A stretch of 64,000 nucleotides of DNA from positions 698,598-762,597 of the forward strand of contig CAVRYD010000014.1 of the NCBI GenBank assembly GCA_963725335.1, read 5' to 3'. The first letter of the stretch is position 1. Each line of letters opens with the position of its first letter. Source of the DNA: an uncultured Acidobacteriota bacterium (GTDB taxonomy: Bacteria; Acidobacteriota; Vicinamibacteria; Vicinamibacterales; 2-12-FULL-66-21). Made by a program: the position numbers and the translations under genes. This document shows positions 5,994 through 64,000 of the stretch, piece by piece. The notes under the pieces are model-generated. The model was not told the origin of the DNA. It saw only the letters and a list, made by a program, of their open reading frames with translations, and made no database searches.

Positions 5994-7228
5994 GTGAACG
6001 CTGCTGGCAATCCTGCTCGTTCAGCTGATTGTCATCATCTCGGCCGGACGGCTCATGGGGCTGTTGTTCCGACGGCTGGGCCAGACTGCGGTGATCGGCG
6101 AAATGTTCGCCGGAGTCCTGCTCGGTCCGTCGCTGCTCGGTCAGCTGTCGCCGTCGACGGAACTGCGCCTTTTCCCTCCGGCATCGCTCCCGCCGCTGTT
6201 TCTCCTCAGTCAGCTCGGCATCGTGCTCTTCATGTTCATCGTCGGTCTCGACGTCGACGTCATTCGGCTTCGCCGCCGCGCGGGAGCGACGGTCTTCATC
6301 AGCACGACGGGCATCATTGTGCCTTTCTCGCTCGGCATCGGGCTTTCATGGTACCTGCACGATCGGTATGCGCCTCCAGGCGTGCCATACCTGACGTTCG
6401 CGCTGTTCGTCGGCATTGCCATGAGCATTACCGCGTTCCCCGTACTCGCGCGTATTGTCGCTGAGCGTGGTCTCAAGGACACCGATCTCGGCAACACGGC
6501 AGTGGGCTGTGCCGCAATCGACGACGTGACCGCCTGGTGTCTGCTGGCGCTGGCGCTGGCGATCGGCCAGGGTCACGGGTTCGGACCACCGCTGGTGGCC
6601 GTGACGCTCACGGCAGCCGTGGCGTTCACCGCGCTCGTGGTCGTCCGCTCGCGTGCGACGCAGTTCTTTGGTCGTGCCGACGTCGGAGGCGTGTCAAGGG
6701 GCACGCTGCTGCGGACGCTGCTGTTTCTCTTCGCCGCTGCGCTTTCAACCGAGGCCATCGGCGTGCACGCGTTGTTTGGCGCCTTCCTCGCCGGCGTCGC
6801 CGTCGCTGGTGCCGAATCGTTGCGCGAGCCGCTGCGCGAGGCGATTGAGCCGATGGCCTCGACGTTGCTGCTCCCGCTTTTCTTCGCGTACTCCGGCCTG
6901 CGAACCGAAGTTGGCGCGTTGTCCGGCACTGCATGGATTGCGTGCGGCTTCGTACCTGGTTGCGGCGGTGGCCGGAAAGTTCGGCGCGATCTCCCTCGCC
7001 GCGCGCTTTCAGGGATTTCCGTGGCGCGACTGCGTTGCGCTCGGAGCGCTGATGAACACGCGCGGGCTGATGGAGCTGGTGGTCCTCAACATCGGCTACG
7101 ACCTCGGGATTCTCTCGCCGCCGATGTACACGATGATGGTGATCATGGCGCTGACGACGACGTGCATGGCGGGACCGGTGCTCGCGGTGCTCGAGAGCGG
7201 CCGAGCGAGGTCTGCCAGGGTCCTGTAG
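5994..7228 (+). pseudogene. cation:proton antiporter (CPA2/Kef-type), frame broken twice (+1 each)
   Basis: ORF-track pieces 6055..7236 (N-terminal part good to ...SGTAWIA) and 6653..7228 (C-terminal part ...[21 protein letters not shown]...[18 protein letters not shown]). Deleting one g at 6946-6947 joins them. Deleting one a at 5997-5998 links GTG 5994 to [30 protein letters not shown]. 1235 nt minus 2 is a multiple of 3. May be assembly error. Confidence 0.75.
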
Positions 7229-9517: not shown

Positions 9518-9522
9518 CGATC

Positions 9523-9770
9523 GCGGATTGCGGATTGAAGATTGCGGATTTTGTGATGGCCGATTGTCGATTGAGATTGCTGATTGTCGATTGAGATTGC
9601 CAATTTACGATTGTATGGCCGAATCGGCCGGCTCAGAGGCCAATCGCCATTCCAATCAGCAATCGTCAATCCAAGTCAGCAATCGTCAATCCAAATCAGC
9701 AGTCCGCAATCTCAATCCGCAATCCGCAATCAAGAAATCCGCAATCTTCAATCCGCAATCAGCAATTCTT
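9523..9770. repeat. heptamer-phased imperfect palindrome (GATTGNN units / NNCAATC units)
   Basis: Left arm is built of GATTGCG/GATTGAA-type 7-mers and the right arm of their complements. The outer 26 nt are perfect inverted repeats: GATTGCGGATTGAAGATTGCGGATTT at 9526-9551 versus its reverse complement at 9735-9760. The centre lies near 9620-9640. Confidence 0.85.
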
Positions 9771-15872: not shown

Positions 15873-15884
15873 GCGAGTGAGCTG

Positions 15885-15985
15885 AATCCCTAATCACTAA
15901 TCACTGATCCTGAATCGCTAATCCCGAATCCTTCAATCCCGAATCCTTCAATCCCGAATCCTTGAATCGCTGAATCGCTGAATCG
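15885..15985. repeat. left arm of heptamer-phased inverted repeat flanking the four-helix-bundle gene
   Basis: The arm reads AATCCCT AATCACT AATCACT GATCCTG AATCGCT AATCCCG AATCCTT CAATCCC GAATCC... Its outer 62 nt (15885-15946) are the reverse complement of 16522-16584, apart from 1 mismatch and 1 single-nt indel (hand alignment). Confidence 0.85.
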
Positions 15986-16393: not shown

Positions 16394-16440
16394 GCCCCAG
16401 CAGTTAGGCACAGCACATGCCAGGATCCGGCATCCCACGA

Positions 16441-16584
16441 TTCAGGGATTCAGGGATTCAGGGATTCCAGGATTCAAGGATTCCGGGGATTCGGGGATTT
16501 GATTCGAGGATTCGGGATTGAGGATTCGGGATTGAAGGATTCGGGATTAGGCGATTCAGGATCAGTGATTAGTGATCAGGGATT
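16441..16584. repeat. right arm of heptamer-phased inverted repeat flanking the four-helix-bundle gene
   Basis: GGGATTC/AGGATTC-type 7-8 nt units. The outer part is the reverse complement of 15885-15946. It overlaps the last 5 codons and stop of the thyX-like gene (..SIPDH*). Confidence 0.85.
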
Positions 16585-48026: not shown

Positions 48027-49169
48027 TCATCGTTCGCGGTTCTTGTTGTCGTACATTCTTTCGTCTGCAATCTTGACGAGTGCCATGACGTCAGTCGCGT
48101 CCGGCGCCACTTCGGCGCATCCGATGCTGAGGCCTACACCGGCGGGAAGCGCCTCTGCCTCCGGTGACGTCGCGAAATCTCGCTGCAGCGCGGTGGCTCG
48201 GCGCAGCGCCTCCTCCTCGCGGCACGACATCAGAATCAAGAACTCGTCGCCGCCCCAGCGAAACACGTAGTCCACCTCACGGACATTCCGGATGAAGAAT
48301 GTCGCGACCCGGTGCAGAACGCGGTCTCCTTCCTCGTGCCCGAGAGTGTCGTTGATCGTTTTGAAGCGGTCGACGTCGATGAACACTATCGACAGCGGGA
48401 TGTGATACCGGCGATGCCGCTGGACCTCGCGGCCAATGACTTCGTCGAAATAGCGACGATTGCGACAGCCGGTGAGTGTGTCTGTCGTGACGAGATCGCG
48501 CAGCTCGTCCTGCGCGGCTTTGAGGCGGGTGTTGGTGACGCGCAGCTCGTACGTCATGTCTTCGAACGCCATGAGCTGCATGCCAAGTGCCGCCACGAGG
48601 TTGAGCGCAGTGTTGACGAACGTCAGGCGTCCGACCTCCTGAGTGATCTGCAAGCCAATCAGCAGCCACAGATGCGTGGCGGCGATGATGATGAACGTGA
48701 CGCCCACGACGAGCGCGCCGAGCAGGCGCCCTTGTCGGAGTATCGAGAGATGCCCGATGCCTGCAGCCGTCAGCGCTCCGGCAATGAGTAGATGACCGGG
48801 ACCAAACGCTGCCGTCGCGTACAGCGCGAGCGGAGCGAGGCTGAACCAGAGGAGAAGAGGAAGCAGAACGAGTGCGTAGCCGCGAACGATCCGGAGGCGT
48901 GCGCGATAGGCGTCGGCGGCGAGGACGAAGCTCAGCGCTCCGAGGATCGCGAGAAATTGAGACAATCCATAAGCGACGTAGCCCGCTTTCGGCCGCTCGA
49001 AGCCATGCCCGGCGAGGAGCAATGACAGTGCGGTGACCGCCCAGCCCGAGACCCAGCACACGATATAGGTCCGCCGGCGGTAGACATAGAGGAGGCACAG
49101 GACGCAAGCAACCAGTAGCGTGGCGATACCGCTCAGCGTGCGCGGATCGATGGATGAATCACTAATCAC
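48027..49169 (-). CDS. membrane-anchored diguanylate cyclase (GGDEF)
   Basis: 380-aa ORF with about 6 N-terminal TM segments. RNRRYFDE...IDVDRFKTINDTLGHEEGD...RWGGDEFLIL. The GTG start and first codons lie inside the heptamer array at 49160-49229. Confidence 0.85.
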   Translation of the reverse strand: MISDSSIDPRTLSGIATLLVACVLCLLYVYRRRTYIVCWVSGWAVTALSLLLAGHGFERPKAGYVAYGLSQFLAILGALSFVLAADAYRARLRIVRGYALVLLPLLLWFSLAPLALYATAAFGPGHLLIAGALTAAGIGHLSILRQGRLLGALVVGVTFIIIAATHLWLLIGLQITQEVGRLTFVNTALNLVAALGMQLMAFEDMTYELRVTNTRLKAAQDELRDLVTTDTLTGCRNRRYFDEVIGREVQRHRRYHIPLSIVFIDVDRFKTINDTLGHEEGDRVLHRVATFFIRNVREVDYVFRWGGDEFLILMSCREEEALRRATALQRDFATSPEAEALPAGVGLSIGCAEVAPDATDVMALVKIADERMYDNKNRER

Positions 49170-49229
49170 TGATCACTAATCGTGAATCCCGAATCCCGAA
49201 TCCCGAATCCCGGATCCCGGATCCGAATC
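49160..49229. repeat. ten in-phase heptamers CACTAAT CACTGAT CACTAAT CGTGAAT CCCGAAT x3 CCCGGAT x2 CCGAATC
   Basis: Counted base by base. The array fills the gap between the DUF420 stop (49233) and the GGDEF start (49169). Confidence 0.85.
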
Positions 49230-49232
49230 GGT

Positions 49233-49647
49233 TCACAGCCGATACAGCATCAGGTAGACGATCACGCCCGTGACCGAGACGTAGAGCCAGATTGGAAACG
49301 TCCATCGAGCGATTGCGACGTGACGATCGAAGCGTCCCCGGAGACCACGGATGACCGTGATGAGCGCCAGCGGCAGCACGGTCGCGGCGAGCACGACGTG
49401 CGTCAGAAGGATCATGAAGTAGACCGCGCGAATCGGACCGCGTCCCGGGAATGGTTTCGACCCGATGTTCGCGTGATAGATGACGTACAGATGTGAGAAA
49501 CGCCGTCGACACCGCGCATGCCGTGAGCATCGTCGCGCGGTGGCGGCGCATGTCGCCGGCGCGGATGAACGAGTAACCGATCACCAGCAGAACGGCAGCG
49601 GTCGCGTTCAGGCTGGCGTTGAGCGCCGGAAGATCGGAGAGAGTCAC
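49233..49647 (-). pseudogene. DUF420 family membrane protein (cytochrome-oxidase-associated), one +1 frame break
   Basis: Pieces are ORF 49162..49647 (MTLSDLPALNASLNATAAVLLVIGYSFIRAGDMRRHRATMLTACAVSTAFL) and ORF 49233..49415 (..ILLTHVVLAATVLPLALITVIRGL..WLYVSVTGVIVYLMLY). 415 nt minus 1 is a multiple of 3. Confidence 0.75.
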
Positions 49648-52364: not shown

Positions 52365-53739
52365 TCAGGGCTTCAGCTTACGCAGAATGCGGTCCTGAAT
52401 CCAGTGCTGATCCCACCACTCGACCGGGTTCACCATGTTGCCGTTCACGAGCATCGTGAAATGGAGGTGATCGCCGCCCGCCAATCCCGTCATGCCGCTC
52501 CGTCCGATTTCCTGTTCCTTCTCGACCATCTGACCGGCTTTGACGCCGATGGACGACAGATGTCCATACAGCGACTGCACGCCCATCCCGTGATCGATGA
52601 TGACGCAGTTGCCGTAGATGCCCAGTTCGTCGGCGTACAGCGACCTTGCCGCGGTTCGCCGCGACGATTTTGACTCCGGTAAACGACGCGAGGTCGAAGC
52701 CGAGGTGGACCTGCTGATCGACTTCCTTGCCGTTGTAGATGTAGGTGCGCTGATCCGCGAACGCGGACTCCACGGCGTTGTTCCCAAACGGATGAAAGAC
52801 GACGCCTCGCCACAGGATTTCCGGCGCACTGTCCTTCGCAAACGACGCGATCTTCGCGGCGTTCTTGCGGCGCAGCTCTCCGTTGATCACCAGGAACTTG
52901 GCAAGGTTGTCTCCCTCCGGCTTGACCTCGGTCGTTCCGGCAAGGATGGCGGGAACGACGCGATCGAGGAATTTGTCGTCGAGCAGAATCTTGCTCTTCT
53001 TGAATGGCTTGGGAAACGTCGTGTAGTCGAAGTCGGCGCGCGCCGTGTTGCCCGCCTCATCGCGCGCGAACAGGCGAATCGGCGTCTTGAGATCCTGATC
53101 GTATCGAAGCGCGAAGAACGCGATGCGCAGCGTGGGATCGTCCAGCTTCACACCTTCAACCGCAGATGCCCCCGACGCCGGGTAGCCGGGGTATTCGAGA
53201 TCGCCTACCAGCACGCCTGACGTGATGTCCGCCGGCGCTGCACGATAGACGACCATCTCCGACCCGCCCAGATTGATGTAGTGCTTCGACGAGACGATGG
53301 ATATCTGGGGCCTCTCGAGGCGGACCTGCACGTCGTGACTCGCCGTCGATTGCAGCGTGCGCAGCCCACGCATCACCGCGCGGGAGGCGGTGACGGTAAT
53401 GCGCGCGGGACCGCTCTTCAGATCGGGGATCGTCTCCTTGCCGACCGTGCGAGTAATGCGCAAGGCGTCCGGCCCATCCAGTTTGACGCCTTCCCCCGTT
53501 GGCTGACCGCCGGTCATCTCGTACAGCGTCGTCTGCTTGCCGTTCTGGTCGAAGACGACCTTGATCGTTTTGAGTTGGGCGCCCGGCGCCCCAACCACCA
53601 CCTCGACGGGTGTGCTGGTGCCCACGAACTTCACAGGCTTTGGAATCTGGATTGTGGGGCCGCCGGCTCGTCCCGCGACAACATAAGCGCCGCCGGCGGC
53701 GAGCGCGAGGATCAGAATGAGTCCGAAGAGGTATCGCAT
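52365..53739 (-). pseudogene. M23 family metallopeptidase, one +1 frame break
   Basis: Pieces are ORF 52378..53739 (signal anchor and N-terminal domains, good to ..VAANRGKVA) and ORF 52365..52841 (YADELGIYGNCVIIDHGMGVQSLYGHLS...GGDHLHFTMLVNG). 1375 nt minus 1 is a multiple of 3. Confidence 0.8.
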
Positions 53740-53840: not shown

Positions 53841-53863
53841 TAAAGGTTCCTGTCGCGCGCTGT

Positions 53864-53938
53864 GCCGGTATCGTCTAGGGGTCAGGACACGTGGTTCTCA
53901 GCCACGGGACCGGGGTTCGAATCCCCGTACCGGTACCA
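53864..53938 (+). tRNA. tRNA-Glu (anticodon CUC), CCA encoded
   Basis: Hand-folded cloverleaf: acceptor GCCGGTA/TACCGGT, D arm GTCT-AGGGGTCA-GGAC, anticodon arm CGTGG-TTCTCAG-CCACG, variable GGAC, T arm CGGGG-TTCGAAT-CCCCG, discriminator A, CCA. Collinear with E. coli tRNA-Glu. Confidence 0.9.
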
Positions 53939-53957
53939 TTCTTCAAGCCGAAGGCTC

Positions 53958-55430
53958 TCAGTTATTTCGAGCGATTTCCTTCGCGCCATCAGAGTCTTCC
54001 GCGAGACTCTGTTCCGTTGGAACTTGAAAGATTCCTGAAACGTCTGCCTCCGCATCAGCGATCGCGTCGAAAGCCTTGTGTCTAATGCTTCCGATTGTCG
54101 CGAACGATTGGCCGAGCGCGAGCGCCAACGCCAGCAGCAGCACCACACCCGCTCGCGCGGCTGGCACTGCGGTCACCGGCGTGAACAGGGCCAACGGAAT
54201 GGCGGCCGCGATCGCCTGGTAGCCGGCTTGGTTCGGGTGAACGTGATCGCACGTCAAATCAGAGCGCAGGGACCAGGCCGGATCGCTGGCATCTTTGACG
54301 GCTGCTTCGACGTCAATCACCGCATCGAAGCTCGGTTCGGCGGCGCCTTGGCGCTTGTCGTGGTCGCGAATCCATTGGTTCACGACCTGAGCGGTTTGCT
54401 TGTTGTTGCCGACGTCCTTGACGGAGTGGCCAAAAGGGAGGATTGGAACCCCGAGGATCTGCTTCCTCGCCTGGTGAGCTTTGGCGATGGCCTGCTCGTA
54501 GGCGGTCTCGAGAAAGGAGGCGTCGACGTGCTCGTACGAGATGTCGTTCACGCCCATGAGCAGCATCACCCATCGCACCTCCGGCAGCCTCAACAGTTCA
54601 TCCAGGCGCAACAAGCCACGAAGACCCGCGCCATCGGACGAGGCAAAGCGCCCCGACCCGATGCCGGCGTTCAGCACGGCTAGCGCTGTCCCGTCGGGCA
54701 GGGACGGCATCCGTGCCGCGAGCCGATCCGGCCAGTCGCCGTCTGCATCCACCGCGGAGCAGGCCCCTTCGGTGATCGAGTCGCCGAGCGCCACGATCGC
54801 CGCCTCTGGACGGGACGCGAGAACCTGCACCTCGTAGACCGCAAAAACCTGGCGGGTCGTCGACGCCCCCGTCAGAGACGTCGCGGAGACCTGGTTGCCG
54901 GCACCGTGATACGCGGTCTTGACCTGCGCGCGCCCGCCCTCGGTTGTCGGAACGAACGAGCCCGGCACGTACAGCGAGATCGCCAAATCCTGCCCTGCGC
55001 TGACAGGCAGTGTGACGGGATCACTCCACAGGTCGCTGCCAGCGGCAACGAGCGCCGACGAGCTCCCCGCGAACGTGAGCGCACGGTCTGTTCCGCTGGC
55101 GATACCGCTGCCGCTGGTGCGGATCGCGACGTGCCCAGCGCCAATCCCGAGTGATGTCGCGGAGAACCGCTGACTGAGTCGCACCCTCACCTGTGAACCG
55201 CCCGCGGTGAGGTGCGCCATCACCCGCAGCGTGCGGCCGGTCAGATCCGGAACCGGATCCGTGAACGTATGATCGGTCGTAATCGTGGTGGAGAGCGGTC
55301 CTCTTCCTATCCACGCGGACACCCACGTGGGCGCCTGCGCCTGCGCGGTCACTGCGATCAATGCGCATGACAGCGCGAGGACGACAATGATCGACGAGCG
55401 AGGAACGTTTCGTCGCAGCCGTGAGCTCAT
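53958..55430 (-). CDS. secreted SGNH/GDSL-family hydrolase
   Basis: ORF track 53958..55640 trimmed to ATG 55430 (MSSRLRRNV..., signal peptide ..AVTAQAQA). Block I ALGDSITEG, block V DHVHPN. An unusual 75-aa C-terminal tail has one hydrophobic segment. Confidence 0.75.
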   Translation of the reverse strand: MSSRLRRNVPRSSIIVVLALSCALIAVTAQAQAPTWVSAWIGRGPLSTTITTDHTFTDPVPDLTGRTLRVMAHLTAGGSQVRVRLSQRFSATSLGIGAGHVAIRTSGSGIASGTDRALTFAGSSSALVAAGSDLWSDPVTLPVSAGQDLAISLYVPGSFVPTTEGGRAQVKTAYHGAGNQVSATSLTGASTTRQVFAVYEVQVLASRPEAAIVALGDSITEGACSAVDADGDWPDRLAARMPSLPDGTALAVLNAGIGSGRFASSDGAGLRGLLRLDELLRLPEVRWVMLLMGVNDISYEHVDASFLETAYEQAIAKAHQARKQILGVPILPFGHSVKDVGNNKQTAQVVNQWIRDHDKRQGAAEPSFDAVIDVEAAVKDASDPAWSLRSDLTCDHVHPNQAGYQAIAAAIPLALFTPVTAVPAARAGVVLLLALALALGQSFATIGSIRHKAFDAIADAEADVSGIFQVPTEQSLAEDSDGAKEIARNN

Positions 55431-55495
55431 CGGGTGCGCAAATGGCTTCCGAATCGATGACCTGGCCGTCGCCGAGCCTCGATGCGCCTCCCGGC

Positions 55496-58400
55496 TCAGA
55501 ATGAATATTTCAACCCGAACTGAATCTGGCGCATCGGAAGGGCGGTTGAGGTGATGACGCCGAAGCCCTGATGCGCCGCGTTCTCGGCCGCGCCCGGGAA
55601 TGCCGCGCCCGCCAGGATGTTTCCGTTGGGTGCGCCCCACACCGGATGGTTGAACACGTTGAAGGCTTCGACCCTGGCCTGAATGCGGTGGCCATTCGGC
55701 AGCCGGAAATTCTTCGCCAGCGACGCGTCGATCTGCTGCAGATGCGGCGTCGTCATCGAATTGCGCCCGACGGTCCCGAATTGGCCCTCAGGAGACAAGA
55801 CGAACGACGCGGGGTCGTACCAGCGCGTCGGCGAGGGGTCGGCGGCATAGCCGTCGCCCACGCCCGAGTAGCTCGGACGGTCGTTCACCAGGGCGTTGGT
55901 GCCCGATTGAACCTTGCCGGCCGAGAGCGTCTGCGGAACGCCGCTCTGGATCGTGGTGTTCGTGCTCAACTGCCACCCGCCGACAATGCCGTCCAGGACG
56001 GCGTTGTCGATGTTCACCGGTTTGCCCTTGCCGAACGGCAGCTCGTAGACGGCGCCCATGACCCAGCGATGGCGCACGTCGAACGAGGAGGGCCCGGTCT
56101 CGCATTCCATGCAGCGGCTGTCCTGCGGGAACAGCGTGTCGAAGCCCTGCGTGCGGGTTCCGCTGGAGTTGTCGATCGACTTGGCCAGCGTGTAGCTCGT
56201 GTTCAGGCTGAGCCCGTCACCGTAGCGGCGCGTCGCCTTGACGCTGAACGCGTTGTAGTGCCCTTTGTTCTGGTCGGTCACATACGAGATCACGCCGAAG
56301 GTCGGATAGGGCACGCGCGAGCTGATGGTGTTCAGCGGGCCCGGACCGGCCTGGTTAAGGGTCTGGAACCCATACAGATGGCGGCTCTGCGATCCGAGGT
56401 AGCCCACCTCCACTGACCAGTTCGCGGCAAGCTGCCGCTCCACGTTGACCAGATACTGCCAGGTGCGCGGCGTCTCGTGACCGTAGGCGGCCGCCCACGT
56501 CAACGTCGGAGGCACCGAGGCGAGCCCCCCGCCGGGAACGGCATTGGCCCAGGTGAGCAAATTCGTCGTCCCCGCTTGAAAGTCGACGCGGGCGGCGGTA
56601 ATACGGGCCATGTCGAAGTACTCGGCGTTGCCGATGTCTTCCATGTAGTAGAGCCCGACGCCGGAGCGAACGACCGTCTTTTCCCCGAGCGCGTAGGTCG
56701 CGCCGAGCCTGGGCGCGAAGTTCTATGTCTTCGTCTCCCGCAGGTTGTTGTTCATCCCGAAATCCTTGGCGCACCCGACCGGCGTGACTGACCAGCGGAG
56801 GCTCAGACCGGCGTACGGATCGGTGCAGTCGTCGCCCTGGCGCACCAGCGTCGGATAGTTCGACTGCGGCTGATTGAGGCTGTAGTCGATCGTCGGGATG
56901 TGCGACCGTGAAGTAGTTCCCCAGCGTGTTGGTGAACGGCGGCGTCAGCTCGTAGCGCAGGCCGGCCAGCAGCGTGAAATTGTTCGTCACCTTCCAGTTA
57001 TCGTCGACGAACGCGTGGAAGACGTTGCGGACGAATTTTCCCTCGGCGACGGCCAGCGCGACGGTCGTGTGGAACGGCTGGCCGAGCAGGAACTCGGCGA
57101 AGGCGTAGCCGCCGGTGTTGTTCACCGGGTTCCTGGTGGTATTCGCCTGGAAGGAGAAGATCCCGCGGGAAAACTGGTTGCCGACCTCGTTGAAGTGCTG
57201 CCGGTCGTACTCAGCGCCCATGCCGATGGTGTGGCGTCCTTTCACCCACGTCAGCTTGTCGACGAACTGCAGCGTGTTGTTGTCGACGGCGAACGGGCCG
57301 TCGTTGGCATCACCGATGTCGTTGAACCCGGTGAACGAGACGTCCGGAATGCCCCACGTGACCGGGTCGCCGGATTTCAGGTTCGGGATCTTCACATCGG
57401 AGACCACATCGTTGGTAAAGGCCGACAGGGTGCCGATCGAGTTGAAGAACTTGGTGTAGCCGAACCGCGCGTCGTTGACCAGCCTGGAGCTGAGCGTCCG
57501 GGTGTTCGAGGCGCCCCACTGCTTGTAGTTCGTAATGGTCTTCGAACCCGCCAGACCGATGCCCTGGCTCGACTGCGTGTCGTCGCCCCAGTTGTAGCGC
57601 CCCATCCACTGTGACGATGGCGATTCGTTGAAATCGGCGCGAACGACATAGCCGTTGCGATCGAACGGCGCCGAGTTGTCCTGCACGTAGTTGTTTTGCA
57701 GACCCGGAAGCGTCGCCGCGTGGTAGTACGACAGTAAGTTCTTCGAGATCGGATCGATCCGGCCTGCCGGAATGACGTTGCCGGGGAACGGCTGGCCCGT
57801 GGTCGGGTCGTAGATGACGGTGCCGGGAATCTCGCTGAAGTCGCCGGCGAACATCTTCTCGGTCGGCACGGTGAACGTGGACTGGGTGGTCTGCCGGCGC
57901 CGCAACTTCTCGAAGTTGGTCATGAAGAACAACTTGTTGCGGAAGCACGGGCCCGTCCACCTCGTAGCCGAAGTCGTTCCACTTGAATGGCGACTTGGCC
58001 GGGTGGACGCTGGTGAAGGCGTAGGGCTTGGCGTCGAATTTCTCGTCGCGGAGGAATTCGAAGACCGAGCCGTGGAAGGCATTGCCGCCTGATTTGGTGA
58101 CGACGTTCACCTGCGTGCTCTGGTGACCGAACTCGGCCGGGTAGACGCCGGTCTGGACCTTGAACTCCTGAATCGCATCGATCGACGGCAGGGCGATGTA
58201 GTTGTTGAAGTTCGGGTCCGTGTTACTGACGCCGTCGAGCGTGTAGTAGTTGAAGAAGATGCGCTGACCACCGGCGGAGATGGACTGCGCGGCGCGCTCG
58301 CCGCCAAGTCGGGCGCCCGCCTGCCCCGCCGCGGGCGAGAGCACGTTGACGTTGGGCGCGACGGCGACCAGATTCAGGTACTGTCGGCCGTTCAGCGGCA

Positions 58401-58854
58401 GCTCGGTCACGATCTTGTTCTCGATCACCGTACCGAGCGTGGTGCTCTGCGTGTTGAGCAGGGTGGATTCACCGACGACGGTCACCGTCTCGCCGAGCGC
58501 ACCGACCTGCAACGGCACGTCCACTCGTACCGTCTGCTGGACGTCGACCTTGAAGGAAGGGATCTCTGCGGTCTTGAAGCCTTGCAGCTCGACTTTCAGT
58601 TCATAGGAGCCGGGAGGCACAGCGGGGAAGGTGTAGAGCCCTTCCGCGTTGGTCGTGGTATTGCGCGTGCCCCTGGTGGCCGTGTTGGTCACCGTGACGG
58701 TGGCGCCGGGGATAGCGGCACCCGACGAGTCTGTCACCGTGCCGGTGATCCCGCCTTGCGTTTGCGCGCGGCCGGTCACGACCCATGGATAGCTTGTCGC
58801 GAGCAGAATCACTACGGTGAGGAGACGTGCGACCGAACGCGACCTGTGTCTCAT
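55496..58854 (-). pseudogene. TonB-dependent-receptor-like outer-membrane protein with CarboxypepD_reg N-domain; two +1 frame breaks and one in-frame TAG
   Basis: GGAG RBS and ATG 58854 (MRHRSRSVARLL...). Pieces are ORFs 57310..58965, 56355..58082 and 55496..56644, ending in QFGLKYSF. Breaks lie near 57941-57942 and 56898-56903. In-frame TAG at 56725-56723 within ..RETKT*NFAPRLG... Confidence 0.85.
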
Positions 58855-59070
58855 GTTTTCTCCAAAGTCACTGGCGAGCATGGACAGCGAGCTGCTGCAT
58901 GCGCCGTGAATGTGGGGCGTCGGCCACGCCCAAACAAGGTGGCCTACGGTACGCGACGGTGTCATGCGCCCAGTTTGGCGTCGTTTTTTCGAACGATTGG
59001 GTCGCAGGCGTGGTCCGCGCCGGAACCGGTACGGTACCGTCGATCGTGATAGAGTCGACCCCCATTCACC

Positions 59071-60327
59071 ATGGCGCGAGCCTCAAATGCCGAGTCCGGG
59101 CACGCCGACGGCGTCTCGGGGCTCGACCACGCGGCCGTGCATGCGCAGCTCGCCCGGCTACTGGAGAGTCCTCATTTCCGCAACAGCAAGCGGAGCCAGG
59201 CGTTGCTGCGGTTCGTGGTCCAGGCAGCGCTGGCCGGCGACCAGAACTCGCTGAAAGAGAGATGCATCGGGGCTGCAGTCTTCGGCCGCGAGCCCGCATA
59301 TGACACAGCCCAGGACCCGATCGTGCGCAATGCGGCGATCGAGGTGCGGAAGCGGCTCGCGCAGTACTATCTCGAGCCTGAGCATGCTGCCGAGTTGCGG
59401 ATCGAGCTCCCGAGCGGATCGTACATCCCGTCATTTCCGGCCGAATCGGCCGCACTGGAACCAGCGGCGCCACGGCCGAAGGCCCACGGCTCTCCGCTGC
59501 GGTGGATCGCCGTCGCCGCGCTCGCGGTGATTGCGGCGGCAGCGGCATTTCTGTGGGGTGCGCGGCGCACGCCGACGTCGGATCTCGAGGCGTTTTGGGA
59601 GCCGCTCTTCCGAGACGGGAGCGCGATCCAGGTGAGTATCGGCCAGCCCACGCGTCTGTATCGCTTTACCGGACCGCGGATGGAGGAATTGAACCGGCTG
59701 TTCGGCGGTGGGGAATCGGACGGCGTAAAAGGAACCAAACCGCCGATTGCTCCCGACGAAGTCGTCTGGGTGGCGCCGGAGTATCTGTTCCTGCGGGACG
59801 CCCTGGCCGCGTTCAAGGTGGCGGCGTGGATTCAATCCAAAGGCCACGCGTCCCGGCTGGCGTCGGTCGCGCAGACCAACTACTCGCAGCTTCGGCATGC
59901 GCCGCTGGTCGCGATCGGGGCCTTCAACAACGCGTGGTCGATCCGGGTCACCGCCGAGCTGAGGTTCGTGTTCGAGTATCGAGTGATCGACGGGGTTGCA
60001 TATCATTGCATCGTCGACCGGCGCAATCCGACGAGCGTCCTGTGGAAAGTGGCGCAGCCGGCGAGTGGCGGAATGAGCGAAGACTATGCGATCGTGACGC
60101 GGGTTTTCGAACCGACCACGGAGAAGACGGTGATTTCAGTGGCCGGTATCGAGACGTATGGCACGTTCGCGGCAAGCGAGTTCGTCACGGAACCGACCTA
60201 TCTCGAGGCTGCGCTGGGCGCCGCGCCGCCGGACTGGCGGCGCAAGAACGTGCAATTCGTGTTGGGCACAAAAATCATCGATGGGACTCCCGGGCCGCCG
60301 CGGATCCTGGCCGTTCAATTCTGGTAA
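59071..60327 (+). CDS. single-pass membrane protein with conserved cytoplasmic N-domain (type found at the N-terminus of acidobacterial regulator/TPR proteins)
   Basis: 418-aa ORF with LESPHFRNSKRSQALLRFVV...LKERCIGAAVFGREPAYDTAQDPIVRNAAIEVRKRLAQYY...LPSGSYIPSF, then TM WIAVAALAVIAAAAAFLW and a periplasmic domain of about 250 aa. Confidence 0.6.
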   Translation: MARASNAESGHADGVSGLDHAAVHAQLARLLESPHFRNSKRSQALLRFVVQAALAGDQNSLKERCIGAAVFGREPAYDTAQDPIVRNAAIEVRKRLAQYYLEPEHAAELRIELPSGSYIPSFPAESAALEPAAPRPKAHGSPLRWIAVAALAVIAAAAAFLWGARRTPTSDLEAFWEPLFRDGSAIQVSIGQPTRLYRFTGPRMEELNRLFGGGESDGVKGTKPPIAPDEVVWVAPEYLFLRDALAAFKVAAWIQSKGHASRLASVAQTNYSQLRHAPLVAIGAFNNAWSIRVTAELRFVFEYRVIDGVAYHCIVDRRNPTSVLWKVAQPASGGMSEDYAIVTRVFEPTTEKTVISVAGIETYGTFAASEFVTEPTYLEAALGAAPPDWRRKNVQFVLGTKIIDGTPGPPRILAVQFW

Positions 60328-60333
60328 CCGCAT

Positions 60334-60470
60334 TGGCGGACACGTCTACCGTGCCGTCGCGTCCGCATGGTCTACGGCGGGGAGCACGCCACCCTCGAAA
60401 GTGCGAGCGCGCGGGAGCGGCAACTGAAACGGTGGAGCCGCGAGAAGAAACAAGCGCTCGTCCATCACTC
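60334..60470 (+). pseudogene. remnant of a small GIY-YIG nuclease family gene (C-terminal part only)
   Basis: The frame of ORF 60367..60759 reads ..RRVRMVYGGEHATLESASARERQLKRWSREKKQALV, matching the C-terminal ..LVYYE....A..REKQLKGWSR.KK.ALI pattern of that family as I recall it. The N-terminal GIY-YIG half is absent. Confidence 0.4.
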
Positions 60471-61100
60471 GGCGCGCAGCGCGTCAATAGGCTGGATTCG
60501 AAGCGCGCGACGCAGCGGCCCTAAGGTCGCCAACGCCGAAACCGCGACGACCAGGCACCCGTACAGGGCGATGACGCGGACCATGTCTCCCGCCGACACG
60601 CGGTCCGCGATGGCCACTCCGATCACGATACCCAGTCCGACTTGCATCAGTGGGCGCCGGAACAATGCGGCTATCACGTGCCGGCGCCGTCCGCCGAGCG
60701 CGACGCGAATGCCGACCTCTCGCGCCCGTTGCGAGGCGATGAAGGAGAGGACCGTGTAGATGCCGGTCAGCGAGAGCATTACCACGACGATCGCCAGGGC
60801 CAGGAAGAGCCAGAAGAGCAGCGTCATCGTACGGCCAGCTGCGGCTGCCACTTGATCGAAGCGGGCGATGTCCGAGATCTGGAGGGTGGGTTCGACCTCT
60901 CTGGCGAGGGACCGCAGCCGTGATGCGAAGAGCAGGGGATCGCCGGTCGTATGGACGGCCATGCGGACGGGATAGCTTCCGCCCGCCACCAGCGGGTGAT
61001 AGACGCGGGCCCTTCTCGAGTCGCGCTTTTCCGGATCGATGCCAGGATCCCGCACGACGCCCACGACTTCATACCACGGCTGGTTCGGACCGTTCGCCAC
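60465..61100 (-). pseudogene. C-terminal fragment of an FtsX-family (MacB/ADOP-type) ABC permease
   Basis: 211-aa ORF with ..YEVVGVVRD... followed by the four-TM FtsX module (GIYTVLSFIASQRAREVGIRVALGGRRRHV...LRRALRIQPIDALRAE). Full-length relatives are roughly 800 aa, and an in-frame stop lies just upstream (about 61183). Confidence 0.7.
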
Positions 61101-61584
61101 ACTCTGCTGTGTGGGGGCGCTGTTGTCGCCGCATGAGATCGTCGTCGAGTGGATAGAGACGAATCCGATCGCCCGCGACGACGCTCAGTACGCACCGGTA
61201 GGAAGCTACATGTTCATGTCATTGGACAGGTGCGACAAGCGGGTTGACTAACCTTCGGCTGGCTTCGCCACACCGCCGCGAACTCGCGATCCTCCGCGTC
61301 CCAATCAGGAAGATCTTCGTCCCAATAACGCATGATCTGGTACGGCCACGCTGCTTCGGCGCGACAAGTTCTGCATCGCGTCAGTGGCGGCGTCGAAGGC
61401 CTTGCCGGCTTCGAGCCGCGCGACCGCCGCCTGCAGCGCTTCGAGCCGCTGGTTGTCGTAGCGCTCGGTCGTCACGATCAAGCTTGAAGATCAAGTCGAG
61501 ACCGAGCGAGAGCGTGAAAAATCGCGTCGGAGGATCCAGGAAATTCAGCGCCAGTCGCGCCGGTCTCAACAGACGCTCGAATCC

Positions 61585-62058
61585 TTGTCGACGCGGCTGA
61601 GCGACTTGGCGACGAAGATCGGATCGCAAGAAGCCGGCTATGAATTCCAGACGTGGTTCTACGATTTGATGGACTTTTTCGAGGTTGTCAACCGCCGCCC
61701 ATACACGGCGTCGGGGCGCCAGATCGACGGCTCGATCACGGTATCCGGGACCACATATCTCGTAGAGCTGAAGTTCACGCGCGAGCAGGTCGGTGCCACG
61801 GACATCGACAGCGTTGTGAAGAAGATCAACGACAAAGCAGACAATACGATGGGCATCATGGTATCGATGTCCGGGTATTCCACTATCGCGCTCAGCGAGG
61901 CATCCGGGCGAAGGACGCCATTGATGCTCATGGATCACCGTCACGTGTACTACGCGTTGGGCGGTTCAGCCGCGTTTGGCGAGATCGTTGACCGGGTACG
62001 TCGTCACGCGTCTCAAACAGGAGAGGCGTTTTTGCCCTCCGAGTGTTTCGGGGGCTGA
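61585..62058 (+). CDS. restriction-endonuclease-like (PD-(D/E)xK, Mrr-type) domain protein, probably 5'-truncated
   Basis: 157 aa from TTG. GYEFQTWFYDLM...GRQIDGSITVSGTTYLVELKF gives a D...E-x-K pattern. The frame stays open upstream to a TAG at 61459-61461 and encodes a charged coiled-coil-like stretch (KLEDQVETEREREKSRRRIQEIQRQ) without a start codon. Confidence 0.45.
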   Translation: MSTRLSDLATKIGSQEAGYEFQTWFYDLMDFFEVVNRRPYTASGRQIDGSITVSGTTYLVELKFTREQVGATDIDSVVKKINDKADNTMGIMVSMSGYSTIALSEASGRRTPLMLMDHRHVYYALGGSAAFGEIVDRVRRHASQTGEAFLPSECFGG

Positions 62059-62422
62059 GTAGCCATGCGGCGTGGCTCGCGGACCGAAAGCCTCCCTCAT
62101 CAACCGATCCTGGCGATAGTCGAGCGGCTGAGCGAGCGAAAGCTCGGCGCCCTTCACTGTGCCAATATTCTGGCAGTCCGTGCGGCTCTCAGTTGATCGA
62201 TTCCCTCCGCGGTGACTGCAGCGAACCCGAACGCGAATCGATTCGGCCTCAAGTCGTTAAGAAACACCAAGGGCGACCTTCTCCAAGAGGTCGCTGTTGG
62301 CTTCGAGGGTTTCGATTGTCCACATCACGACGATGCCGCGACACGCCGCCCGTCTGCGAACGATGCCGTCGCAGCTTGCTAAACCAGCTCACGAACCTCG
62401 AAGGTTAATTGCAGCCAACCGA

Positions 62423-63051
62423 CTAACGGTGCAGGACGATTTCGGTCGCGAGGGGCATCCCCCTGCGATTGACGACGTAGGTGCCGATCTCTGGCGGGGT
62501 CACGTCGTCAGATTCGCGGACGACCATTCTGGCACCGTCAGGCCCTGTCCTTGCTGACAAATCCTTAAGACGGCTCCGTGCTGACGCTGAGGTGCGAGGC
62601 TGTTCCGTCTCAGAGCGCCCCAAAATGATAATGAGACTCGCTGGCGACTCGCCGACCTCGAATAGAACCGGACCGCGAACCGTAACGTCTTCCCTTTGAA
62701 GAACTGTGTATAGCAATTGCGTACCGAGGCTGCTATTAGGGCTATCCATTCGCCAGACGCTCACAAAGGCGCCAACATTTCCTCGAAGATGCAGCGTCAA
62801 CGAGCCCTGGGCGGAGGGGGCGCGCTCTTCGCTAAACGCCTGCCCATTGGCGTCCTCGAACCAATAGTGAATGCCGACGAAACCGTATTGTGGAAACGGA
62901 CTCGCCCACTTAACCGACTTCAGCCGTTGCCCGGTCCCGCCACCGGCGTCGGCCGGCCGGCCGCCGGATCATAAAACATTGCTTTGGCACTCGAAGACTG
63001 TGAGGGCACCGCGCCCGACGGTCCGGCGGCAAGAACCAAGAACTTTCCCAT
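62423..63051 (-). pseudogene. hypothetical protein (DUF4384-like pattern), frame broken by an apparent 1-nt deletion
   Basis: ATG 63051 (MGKFLVLAAG...PVAGPGNG*) continues in another frame as QRLKSVKWASPFPQYGFVGIHYWFEDANGQAF..SLTLHLRGNVGAFVSVWRMD.. (ORF 62423..62800). 629 nt plus 1 is a multiple of 3. The region is AT-richer. Confidence 0.35.
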
Positions 63052-63431
63052 AAACCGTCCCTCACAATCATCCCTGTCAAACCCTCGGGTCGCTGGCTCC
63101 ACAAACGCGGTATTTCGCGAACGATGTTGGCTATCTGATCCGAAAGCAGTTATAAGTCAAATCCGGCAGCCGCTCGAGGACTCCGCGTCCGATGTGACTT
63201 TTTGTTGCCCGATCTCAGAGCGGCTTAACGACCCTTCCTCCGGAGCATCCGAGCAGTCTCGTTGGCCACTTGCCTCGATAGTGGCCAACTCGATTCGTGT
63301 TTGTACCTTGAAGAAAACTTGAAACTTTGCGCACGAAACGAGCCCTTTCGACCGGAGACGGCCGGAGCGATATGTGCAAATTTCCTAAGGAAACCGACGC
63401 AACCGGACACCGCCGATGTGTCGGGCTGCGT

Positions 63432-63474
63432 TTCTCAGCCACGGGACCGGGGTTCGAATCCCCGTACCGGTACC
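63432..63474 (+). other. 43-nt perfect copy of the 3' part of tRNA-Glu (anticodon loop to C75): att-site-like direct repeat
   Basis: TTCTCAGCCACGGGACCGGGGTTCGAATCCCCGTACCGGTACC is identical to 53895-53937. The 30 nt upstream do not form acceptor, D or anticodon stems. Confidence 0.85.
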
Positions 63475-63475
63475 T

Positions 63476-63565
63476 CAATCGCTAATCCCTCGTCACTGAT
63501 CCGAATCCCCAATCGTCGAATCCCTGATCCTCGAATCCCGAATCCTGAATCCTCCGCATAATCCT
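63476..63565. repeat. heptamer-phased array (CAATCGC TAATCCC TCGTCAC TGATCCG AATCCCC AATCGTC GAATCCC TGATCCT CGAATCC CGAATCC TGAATCC ...)
   Basis: This is the same AATCC-type unit family as 15885-15985 and 49160-49229. It starts directly after the tRNA 3'-half copy. Confidence 0.75.
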
Positions 63566-63723
63566 CGGAGCGATTCTCAGTCCACATCCTGCCGGGCCGC
63601 GTCGATCAGCGTCTGAAGGCCTGCGCGTTTTCTCCCGTCAATTGACCGTCCGCGCGAGCCGCGATAATCTGCGCGCGCTGGGCCGGCTGGGCCGAAGCCG
63701 GGCCGGTAAGAGGGGGATGCTCT

Positions 63724-64000
63724 CATGCGCGCGAAACTCGCCGTCGTCGTCACTGTGTTGGCCGCGGCTTATATCGTAGCTGCCGCTCAGCAGAACCCGT
63801 TCGTCGGACGATGGAACCTCACCGGCACCGGATCCGACAATCACCTGATCTACTTTCTCGAAGTGAAGCAGGTCGGCGACCACCTCGAGGGCATGTTCCT
63901 CGACCGTGTCGCGCACGCCCAACCGATCCCGATGATCAAAGTCGAGAACGGCGAGCTCACGTGGCAGTTCGGGCCTGGCGATACGCTGCCGAAGCCGGCC
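63724..64000 (+). CDS. secreted protein of unknown function, 5' part only (runs off window end)
   Basis: Absent from the ORF track because it has no stop in the window. ATG 63724 gives MRAKLAVVVTVLAAAYIVAAAQQNPFVGRWNLTGTGSDNHLIYFLEVKQVGDHLEGMF..., with a clear signal peptide. Confidence 0.5.

Follow-up and report, generated by a model that had tools for sequence, protein, structure and literature searches.

A probable decayed, non-autonomous integrative island in the 3' half of a tRNA-Glu(CUC) gene of a Vicinamibacterales genome

Introduction

The closest described systems to the locus reported here are the cis-mobilizable elements (CIMEs) and the tandem accretion of islands derived from integrative and conjugative elements (ICEs) or integrative and mobilizable elements (IMEs), for example the ICESt1-related elements of Streptococcus thermophilus (Pavlovic 2004; Bellanger 2011; reviewed in PMC5704250). 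We analyzed a 64-kb stretch of DNA (64,000 nucleotides of contig CAVRYD010000014.1, referred to as the window) from a genome of the Vicinamibacterales (Acidobacteriota), in which an intact tRNA-Glu(CUC) gene is followed 9.5 kb downstream by a copy of its 3' half. With a probability of roughly 0.8, we read positions 53938 to 63474 as the decayed remains of an integrative island, no longer autonomous, that occupies the 3' half of this tRNA gene and is probably composite and CIME-like. An earlier reading of the same stretch (the original prediction) had offered an old decayed element or successive insertions at one tRNA; we find the two together, a decayed composite, probably formed by tandem accretion.

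Compared with CIMEs as reviewed in PMC5704250, the island retains both attachment sites, attL and attR, with identical 43-nt cores and with an arm carrying a paired CTTGAAA repeat on each side. It has lost its integrase and excisionase, neither of which is present as an intact gene, and it contains no conjugation or phage genes. Decay from an autonomous element is recorded in integrase debris homologous to integrase genes of related loci (L167, L025, and L081; L numbers designate the loci and contigs compared). As in other tRNA-integrated genomic islands, a direct repeat of the 3' segment of the tRNA bounds the insertion and the tRNA itself is kept intact.

Results

A direct repeat of the tRNA 3' half bounds an insertion

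ARAGORN and Rfam identify a single tRNA gene in the window, tRNA-Glu(CUC) (Table 1). The 43-mer TTCTCAGCCACGGGACCGGGGTTCGAATCCCCGTACCGGTACC at 53895 to 53937 within it matches 63432 to 63474 exactly, on the same strand and at a spacing of 9,537 bp, and the match stops at both edges, with not one further base shared on either side. A chance origin of such a match in 64 kb is negligible. The original prediction had reported this repeat and had set it apart from a second tRNA gene, a distinction that stands; it had named a common dispersed sequence as a refuting condition. No third copy exists on either strand of the window. At the second copy, neither ARAGORN nor Rfam at its gathering score gives a tRNA, a permissive Rfam scan of 63200 to 63560 returned only sub-threshold tRNA-like scraps, and neither program found a recognizable 5' half or cloverleaf at 63400 to 63474, where the upstream sequence is instead a conserved element arm (see below). 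A second tRNA gene or a tRNA pseudogene arising by duplication was ruled out by the missing cloverleaf and by this arm.

The gene upstream of the tRNA encodes an M23 peptidase (52378–53739, minus strand), which we rebuilt across a frame break and scanned against one genome per species. The scan gave 80 loci, all in metagenome-assembled genomes (MAGs) of Vicinamibacterales/Acidobacteriota, the closest at 84 to 90% amino acid identity, and tRNA-Glu(CUC) adjoins the M23 gene in 25 of the 29 closest Vicinamibacterales loci, as it does in the window. The window gene starting at 63725 has its counterpart in L001 (97% amino acid identity, 92 aa) within 313 nt of the tRNA. The flank from 63475 to 64000 is collinear with the sequence after the intact tRNA in both L001 and L003, and 63432 to 63544, including an array of degenerate heptamers after the second core copy (63501–63552, by Tandem Repeats Finder), aligns to the tRNA 3' half and flank of both. 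When 53938 to 63474 was removed in silico, the remainder was collinear with L001 from the upstream flank across the tRNA, heptamer array, and promoter into the downstream gene; collinearity with L003 extended through the heptamer array. Judged by these alignments, L001 and L003 represent the empty site; hence the 9.5 kb was inserted at the tRNA, and the flank that the gene originally had is now found at the downstream copy. The att-type duplication proposed originally is thus supported by the empty site and the deletion analysis in L001, its assignment of the host flank by the heptamer array after the intact tRNA in L001 and L003, and the comparison of synteny around tRNA-Glu that it had called for by the absence of the segment from both loci.

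Intergenic degenerate heptamer arrays recur elsewhere in the window (Tandem Repeats Finder: 9519–9766, 15881–15985, 16439–16584, and 49157–49229, in addition to 63501–63552), with units GAATCCC, GATTGCG, and CAATCAG and their reverse complements. Homologous arrays stand after tRNA-Glu in L001 and L003 and also in the soil contigs L096, L099, L117, L139, L146, and L155.

We also considered composition. The GC content of 2-kb windows in the right part of the island (0.583–0.597) lies below that of all 104 host windows (mean 0.636, minimum 0.5985), in agreement with the earlier remark that this part is AT-richer. Tetranucleotide usage deviates in the right 2 kb (z 4.2–4.6) and in an outer-membrane protein (OMP) gene (z 4.6–6.2). 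The GC and k-mer profiles that had been suggested as a check deviate in these two places, with the remaining block within the host range. One could take the segment for ordinary host DNA in which a local partial duplication of the tRNA produced the 43-nt copy, a reading that suits the host-range GC and tetranucleotides of 53.9 to 55.5 kb and 59 to 61 kb and gene types that are common in Acidobacteria. This explanation has to contend with the empty site in L001 and L003, with integrase remnants inside the segment, with the 125 nt left of the copy, which form a conserved element end in 76 contigs, and with a block that is 95 to 100% identical where flanks are ~78% identical, and we consider it extremely improbable.

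Both cores are flanked by conserved arms

Joint Genome Institute (JGI) metagenomes were searched with a 21-nt junction of element end and core, which gave 76 soil contigs. Across these contigs, 63307 to 63474 is conserved at 80 to 91% identity (nhmmer E 6.7e-51 for the arm), and most contigs that are long enough share a sharp left edge at 63307. This edge coincides with the paired repeat CTTGAAgAAAACTTGAAAC. The motif CTTGAAAN4CTTGAAAC, allowing up to two mismatches, has two matches in the 64 kb (expected 0.00), one at this edge and the other at 54023 to 54041. The two sites have the same orientation; the first lies left of the attR core, starting at a distance of 125 nt, and the second sits in an integrase tail, as it also does in the integrase tails of L025 and L004. 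By analogy with lambda-type attP sites, and from their position and conservation, we infer that both CTTGAAA pairs serve as arm-type sites for integrase binding.

The sequence immediately left of the attR core has features of its own. The 30 nt from 63402 on are as long as the 5' part of a tRNA and start with ACCGG, which can pair with the acceptor 3' strand CCGGT, and a hairpin, CCGGACAC-N6-GTGTCGGG, occupies 63403 to 63424. Real tRNAs align ~20 nt into the arm in nhmmer. The hairpin shows a few compensatory variants in the 76 soil contigs (GAGAC/GTCTC, GACAC/GTGTC, and GATGC/GCATC) and its covariation is weak; RNAalifold on 48 arm sequences found little covariation, with one variable hairpin pair, and we do not claim a structured RNA. 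The upstream part of 63402 to 63474 may derive from the 5' half of a captured tRNA that has since diverged, or may act as a structural signal, and, as a weaker addition, the attR arm and core might fold into a tRNA-like RNA with its own function. In L099 (1697+, 2792−) and L105 (3713+, 1698−), two arm-plus-core junctions lie inverted 1 to 2 kb apart; candidate explanations are head-to-head elements, an inversion, or a fold-back in the assembly.

The integrase survives as two remnants

The original prediction had found no tyrosine or serine recombinase between the repeats, and for an intact gene this is correct: Pfam gave no recombinase in the open reading frames (ORFs), and FtsX was the sole match in a six-frame Pfam scan of 60330 to 63431. 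The more sensitive search for remnants that it had proposed was thus negative with Pfam profiles and positive with tblastn, since integrases from relatives identified two tyrosine-integrase remnants of ~40 codons each. The first (61478–61359) is 70% identical to the L025 integrase over 40 aa (E 1.4e-10) and holds TTERY with the catalytic tyrosine; its DNA is 80 to 85% identical to the integrase genes of L004, L025, L081, and L167. The second (54077–53961) is 49% identical to the L025 integrase over 39 aa (E 1e-3), its DNA is homologous to the 3' end, facing the tRNA, of the integrase genes of L004, L012, and L025, and it is now read as the last ~40 codons of an SGNH hydrolase ORF.

Relatives of the parent element are found at the same site. 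In L025, L004, and L012, a gene reads towards tRNA-Glu and its product ends in ...HDLRHEYASRLVERGVPLAQVRDLLGHASILTTERYDNQRLEALQAAV...; L167 and L025 have a full-length integrase gene beside the tRNA, L004 and L012 an incomplete one. In L081, the integrase and excisionase lie 8 kb from the tRNA and the integrase tail has been replaced. The L167 integrase (435 aa; PF00589, 83.6 bits) matches phrog_1 and is preceded by an HTH_17 excisionase (47 bits), which also accompanies the integrase in L025. We rejected an integrase of the SSV type, split by its own attP, because the stop codon of the tail points at the tRNA, which is the wrong geometry, and intact relatives carry the whole gene beside the tRNA.

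Integration into a tRNA with a lambda-like pair of integrase and excisionase is typical of temperate phages and, together with the phrog_1 match, would suit a decayed prophage. What argues against a prophage is that neither the island nor the intact L167 element has a PHROGs or Pfam match to a family for phage structure, packaging, or lysis (the PHROGs matches are the integrase and a lipase-like hit only), that 62059 to 63306 has no match in 50,697 phage records, and that the intact relatives are small (~6.6 kb in L167) with a cargo of toxin–antitoxin genes, nuclease-like genes, and regulators. We give this origin very little credence.

The tRNA-Glu site accumulates elements in tandem

In L167, the tRNA is followed by an intact element and then by the cargo block that forms the left part of our island, preceded there by only ~9 nt of tRNA 3' end. 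L082 has the tRNA, a 2.3-kb insert, a 9-nt tRNA end, and then the block. In L085, the right end of the block (window position 60512) abuts 30 nt of arm plus a degenerate core, after which comes the left end of another element; 19 of 69 soil junctions continue into this same second element type. This type, unrelated to the first, was seen at the tRNA-Glu site in L082 (1148–3466, with a P450 gene) and L085 (from 2446), has a left end CCA(T/A)CCTTCGCTC..., and often stands in tandem with an arm-plus-core junction. Other occupants of the interval between tRNA-Glu and the downstream gene, which is 3-keto-disaccharide-hydrolase-like, are 7.2 kb in L002 that include a TetR regulator and an acyl-ACP synthetase/acyltransferase, 3.4 kb with a PD40 protein in L172, another decayed integrase remnant in L171, and an arm fragment in L170. 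With contents this variable, the locus is a general hot spot.

These arrays bear on how the two integrase remnants came to lie 7.3 kb apart. Relative to the L025 integrase, they overlap by 15 codons (positions 204–218), of which nine are identical. The rival to accretion is a single L025-type element into whose integrase 3' end a 7.3-kb segment (the SGNH, OMP, and 418-aa genes and the truncated FtsX gene) was later inserted with a duplication of ~45 nt, followed by further deletions. In favor of this account, the tail remnant ends where the internal one starts relative to the L025 integrase, and KAFDA occurs in both remnants, unlike KTFDP in L025 and L167 and TVFNT in L081. L081 is moreover split likewise, with the tail at the tRNA and the body of the integrase 8 kb off. 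Set against these points, identity in the overlap is only 9/15, compared with 100% for the att cores, the 7.3-kb segment is flanked by neither a transposase nor terminal repeats, and tandem arrays at tRNA-Glu are directly seen in L082, L085, L167, and 19/69 soil junctions. We consider the single-element history unlikely. Remnants that overlap yet differ, together with a block that stands in tandem with other elements elsewhere, make the accretion of at least two elements, then deletions, the most likely course.

The left cargo block is shared with divergent lineages

As named in the original prediction, the left part holds an SGNH/GDSL hydrolase, a CarboxypepD_reg plus OMP barrel protein, and a 418-aa membrane protein (Table 1). 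Gene calls in L081, L082, and L167 include an SGNH gene of equal length. The OMP gene is covered by three ORFs that match consecutive parts of PF25183 (profile positions 1–52, 49–406, and 489–838) and PF13620. The exact 418-aa protein occurs on 10 other contigs, always beside the OMP gene where the contig reaches that far, and with differing right-hand neighbors.

The description of the left 6.5 kb as host-like is accurate for GC and tetranucleotides, which are mostly in the host range, and fails for its history: this is a traveling block, 95 to 99% identical in at least 11 other assemblies. The flank is comparable in only two of them, L014 and L082, where flanking genes are ~77 to 78% identical. 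Window 53862 to 60448 is 98.65% identical to L081, and 53930 to 60554 is 97.45% identical to L082, although across the M23/tRNA flank identity to L082 is just 77%; L083 through L090 match parts of the block at 97 to 100%, and 53931 to 56074 is 97% identical to L167. The block lies directly beside tRNA-Glu in the window, L014, and L081. Identity to the L014 flank is 0.67 to 0.88 per 200 nt, jumps at the tRNA to 1.00 over 54200 to 55400, and then falls stepwise along the block, from 0.99 to 0.86 in the OMP gene by 58700; homology stops ~40 nt upstream of the OMP start codon. The identical 1.2 kb of the SGNH gene corresponds to L014 8400 to 9600, where neighboring core genes are ~78% identical. 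Such a pattern suggests that exchange took place very recently and that the block is a mosaic produced by recombination.

Frame breaks occur both inside and outside the island: in the M23 gene at ~52600, in a DUF420-like ORF at ~49430 to 49600, and in the OMP gene at ~56904 and ~57883. Each of six near-identical copies of the block carries singleton 1-nt indels not shared with the others. Long-read assembly error is the most likely source of the breaks; we rejected pseudogenization of the OMP gene because frame shifts also affect genes outside the island and because the indels differ among the near-identical copies. Such breaks are typical of long-read metagenome assemblies and raise the concern that the whole arrangement is an assembly artefact, a chimera joined at shared tRNA sequence with the repeat derived from two strains; the internal junctions in 60555 to 61480, seen in no other assembly, would fit. 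This is highly improbable in our view, as the attL junction (tRNA, tail, and SGNH gene) is found independently in L014 and L081, the attR-type junction (arm, core, and host flank with heptamer array) recurs in JGI contigs of independent origin, L117 and L155 among them, and both outer flanks follow the order of L001.

The right part consists of gene fragments and decayed DNA

The original prediction called the right part fragmentary, and it is made up of truncated FtsX, integrase, and Mrr-like genes plus 1.25 kb without codon periodicity. The FtsX match of the permease fragment covers only profile positions 2 to 65 of 120, and a permease of the MacB/FtsX type in a related locus has 885 aa; shorter pieces of the permease 3' end in L082, L086, and L085 indicate nested deletions. 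The Mrr-like fragment has 2,666 homologs, typically of 304 aa, the best being 94% identical over 99% of the fragment. The family's PF04471 label comes from precomputed hits on several homologs; the 304-aa protein itself matches no Pfam family significantly. The full-length gene is cargo of the intact L167 element (6309–7223), to which the window fragment is 91.6% identical at the nucleotide level. A homolog in L168 lies beside a Type I restriction–modification operon, and the family has weak N-terminal similarity to Effector-associated domain 1 (E 0.01); the Mrr-like gene is possibly a defense gene carried as island cargo. In the adjoining 1.25 kb, the frame plot gave no codon-position signal, six-frame translation gave no Pfam hit, and no DNA homolog was found in the fetched loci, plasmids, or phage records.

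Table 1. Features of the island and its target tRNA gene; positions are those of the window.
Feature	Position	Strand	Evidence or remark
tRNA-Glu(CUC), CCA encoded, intact; integration target, forms attL	53864–53938	+	ARAGORN; Rfam RF00005, 58.2 bits
attL core, 43 nt, anticodon loop to C75 of tRNA-Glu	53895–53937	+	Exact repeat of 63432–63474
SGNH/GDSL hydrolase, signal peptide, 490 aa	53958–55430	−	Pfam PF13472, E 6.5e-23
Remnant, tyrosine-integrase C-terminal tail (~aa 215–253 of L025-type integrase)	53961–54077	−	tblastn
Paired repeat CTTGAAAGATTCCTGAAAC, presumed arm-type integrase binding site (P' arm)	54023–54041	+	86 nt right of attL core
CarboxypepD_reg + OMP_b-brl_4 outer-membrane beta-barrel, ~1,120 aa, TonB-dependent-receptor type	55496–58854	−	Three frames
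Membrane-anchored protein, 418 aa, without Pfam family	59071–60327	+	ORF, GC3 0.79
MacB/FtsX-type permease, C-terminal fragment, 211 aa, 5' part missing	60465–61100	−	Pfam FtsX, E 2e-7
Remnant, tyrosine-integrase catalytic C terminus (~aa 190–229), ...IVTTERYDNQRLEALQAAVARLEAGKAFDA...	61359–61478	−	tblastn with L025 integrase
Coiled-coil/Mrr-like (restriction-endonuclease-like) gene, 3' two-thirds, 193/304 codons	61480–62058	+	5'-truncated at integrase-remnant junction
1.25 kb of low GC, no coding periodicity; presumed decayed cargo	62059–63306	.	Frame plot
Right-end arm (P arm), conserved	63307–63431	+	Paired CTTGAAA repeat 63307–63325, hairpin 63403–63424
attR core, copy of tRNA 3' half	63432–63474	+	Host flank from 63475 on

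Discussion

The parent elements, seen full-length in L167 and L025 and with a replaced integrase tail in L081, encode a tyrosine integrase of ~435 aa (PF00589) and an HTH_17 excisionase. Their att site has a core of 43 to 44 nt that is identical to the tRNA between its anticodon loop and CCA end, flanked on each side by an arm with a paired CTTGAAA repeat (11-nt spacing), one arm reaching from 125 nt left of the core and the other lying 86 nt to its right, within the last integrase codons. Integration duplicates the core: at attL the tRNA stays intact, and at the opposite end, attR, a fragment of its 3' part remains. At least two elements most likely accreted at the same tRNA and suffered deletions afterwards, the proximal part now comprising the integrase tail, SGNH hydrolase, OMP, and 418-aa protein and the distal part the truncated FtsX, integrase, and Mrr-like genes, the P arm, and between these the 1.25 kb of decayed DNA. 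The order of these events and any present-day mobility are our reconstruction from the arrangement of the parts.

Several observations weigh against a composite island spread by site-specific recombination. The KAFDA motif, a shared derived feature of the two remnants, is explained about equally well by a single, partially duplicated integrase gene and by the accretion of two elements. Most of the block resembles the host in GC and tetranucleotides, with only the OMP gene and the right 2 kb deviating. The complete 9.5-kb unit was not seen in any other assembly; in other assemblies the right end of the cargo block varies (60327–60554), mostly without an att site, and in L014 and L081 a second att copy is absent within ~10 kb. 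Homologous recombination may have contributed to the spread of the block, perhaps more than site-specific recombination. Finally, exact-protein look-ups with the M23 peptidase, the SGNH hydrolase, and CtaB found neither an empty site of the same species nor an excised circle.

The island is not self-mobile. It could be moved by a related integrase acting in trans or by accretion with an incoming element. Because complete att cores and arms are kept, the island, or at least its 6.6-kb cargo block, may in either way be spreading now among divergent soil Vicinamibacterales by hitch-hiking on a widespread family of tRNA-Glu-specific elements; this is a more tentative proposal, which we regard as possible, on the doubtful side.

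A decayed tRNA-linked island is a textbook kind of object and opens no new question. The locus defines an integration hot spot and a previously uncharacterized, widespread family of elements targeting tRNA-Glu(CUC) in soil Vicinamibacterales, an abundant and poorly studied soil group, and for this family an att core, both arms, and a candidate arm-type motif are now given. A cassette of esterase, outer-membrane receptor, and membrane protein moves between lineages that are ~22% divergent in core genes. These features can be used in annotating soil MAGs and in tracing gene flow.

Among known systems, the island shares with CIMEs the loss of integration genes with attL and attR kept, its derivation from an autonomous element by deletion, and its location at the 3' end of a target gene where related and unrelated elements pile up, as in L082, L085, and L167. 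It differs from the ICESt1-type CIMEs in its acidobacterial host, in being itself composite with internal integrase debris, and in that its parent family has no known conjugation module and may comprise ICEs, IMEs, or plain integrative islands; cis-mobilization is putative. Phage lambda attP has, like the att site proposed here, a short core with same-orientation direct short repeats ~90 to 125 nt away on both sides; unlike in lambda, one arm lies inside the integrase coding sequence, and the binding role of CTTGAAA is putative. The classical tRNA-linked islands with lambda- or P4-type integrases, such as pathogenicity islands and ICEclc at tRNA-Gly, likewise target the 3' half of a tRNA that is restored by a direct repeat of ~40 to 50 nt, and the integrase abutting the tRNA in full-length relatives, the variable cargo, and the empty site in relatives are common to both. 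In contrast to these islands, the integrase here is reduced to two fragments of ~40 codons, and the cargo is mostly host-like in composition.

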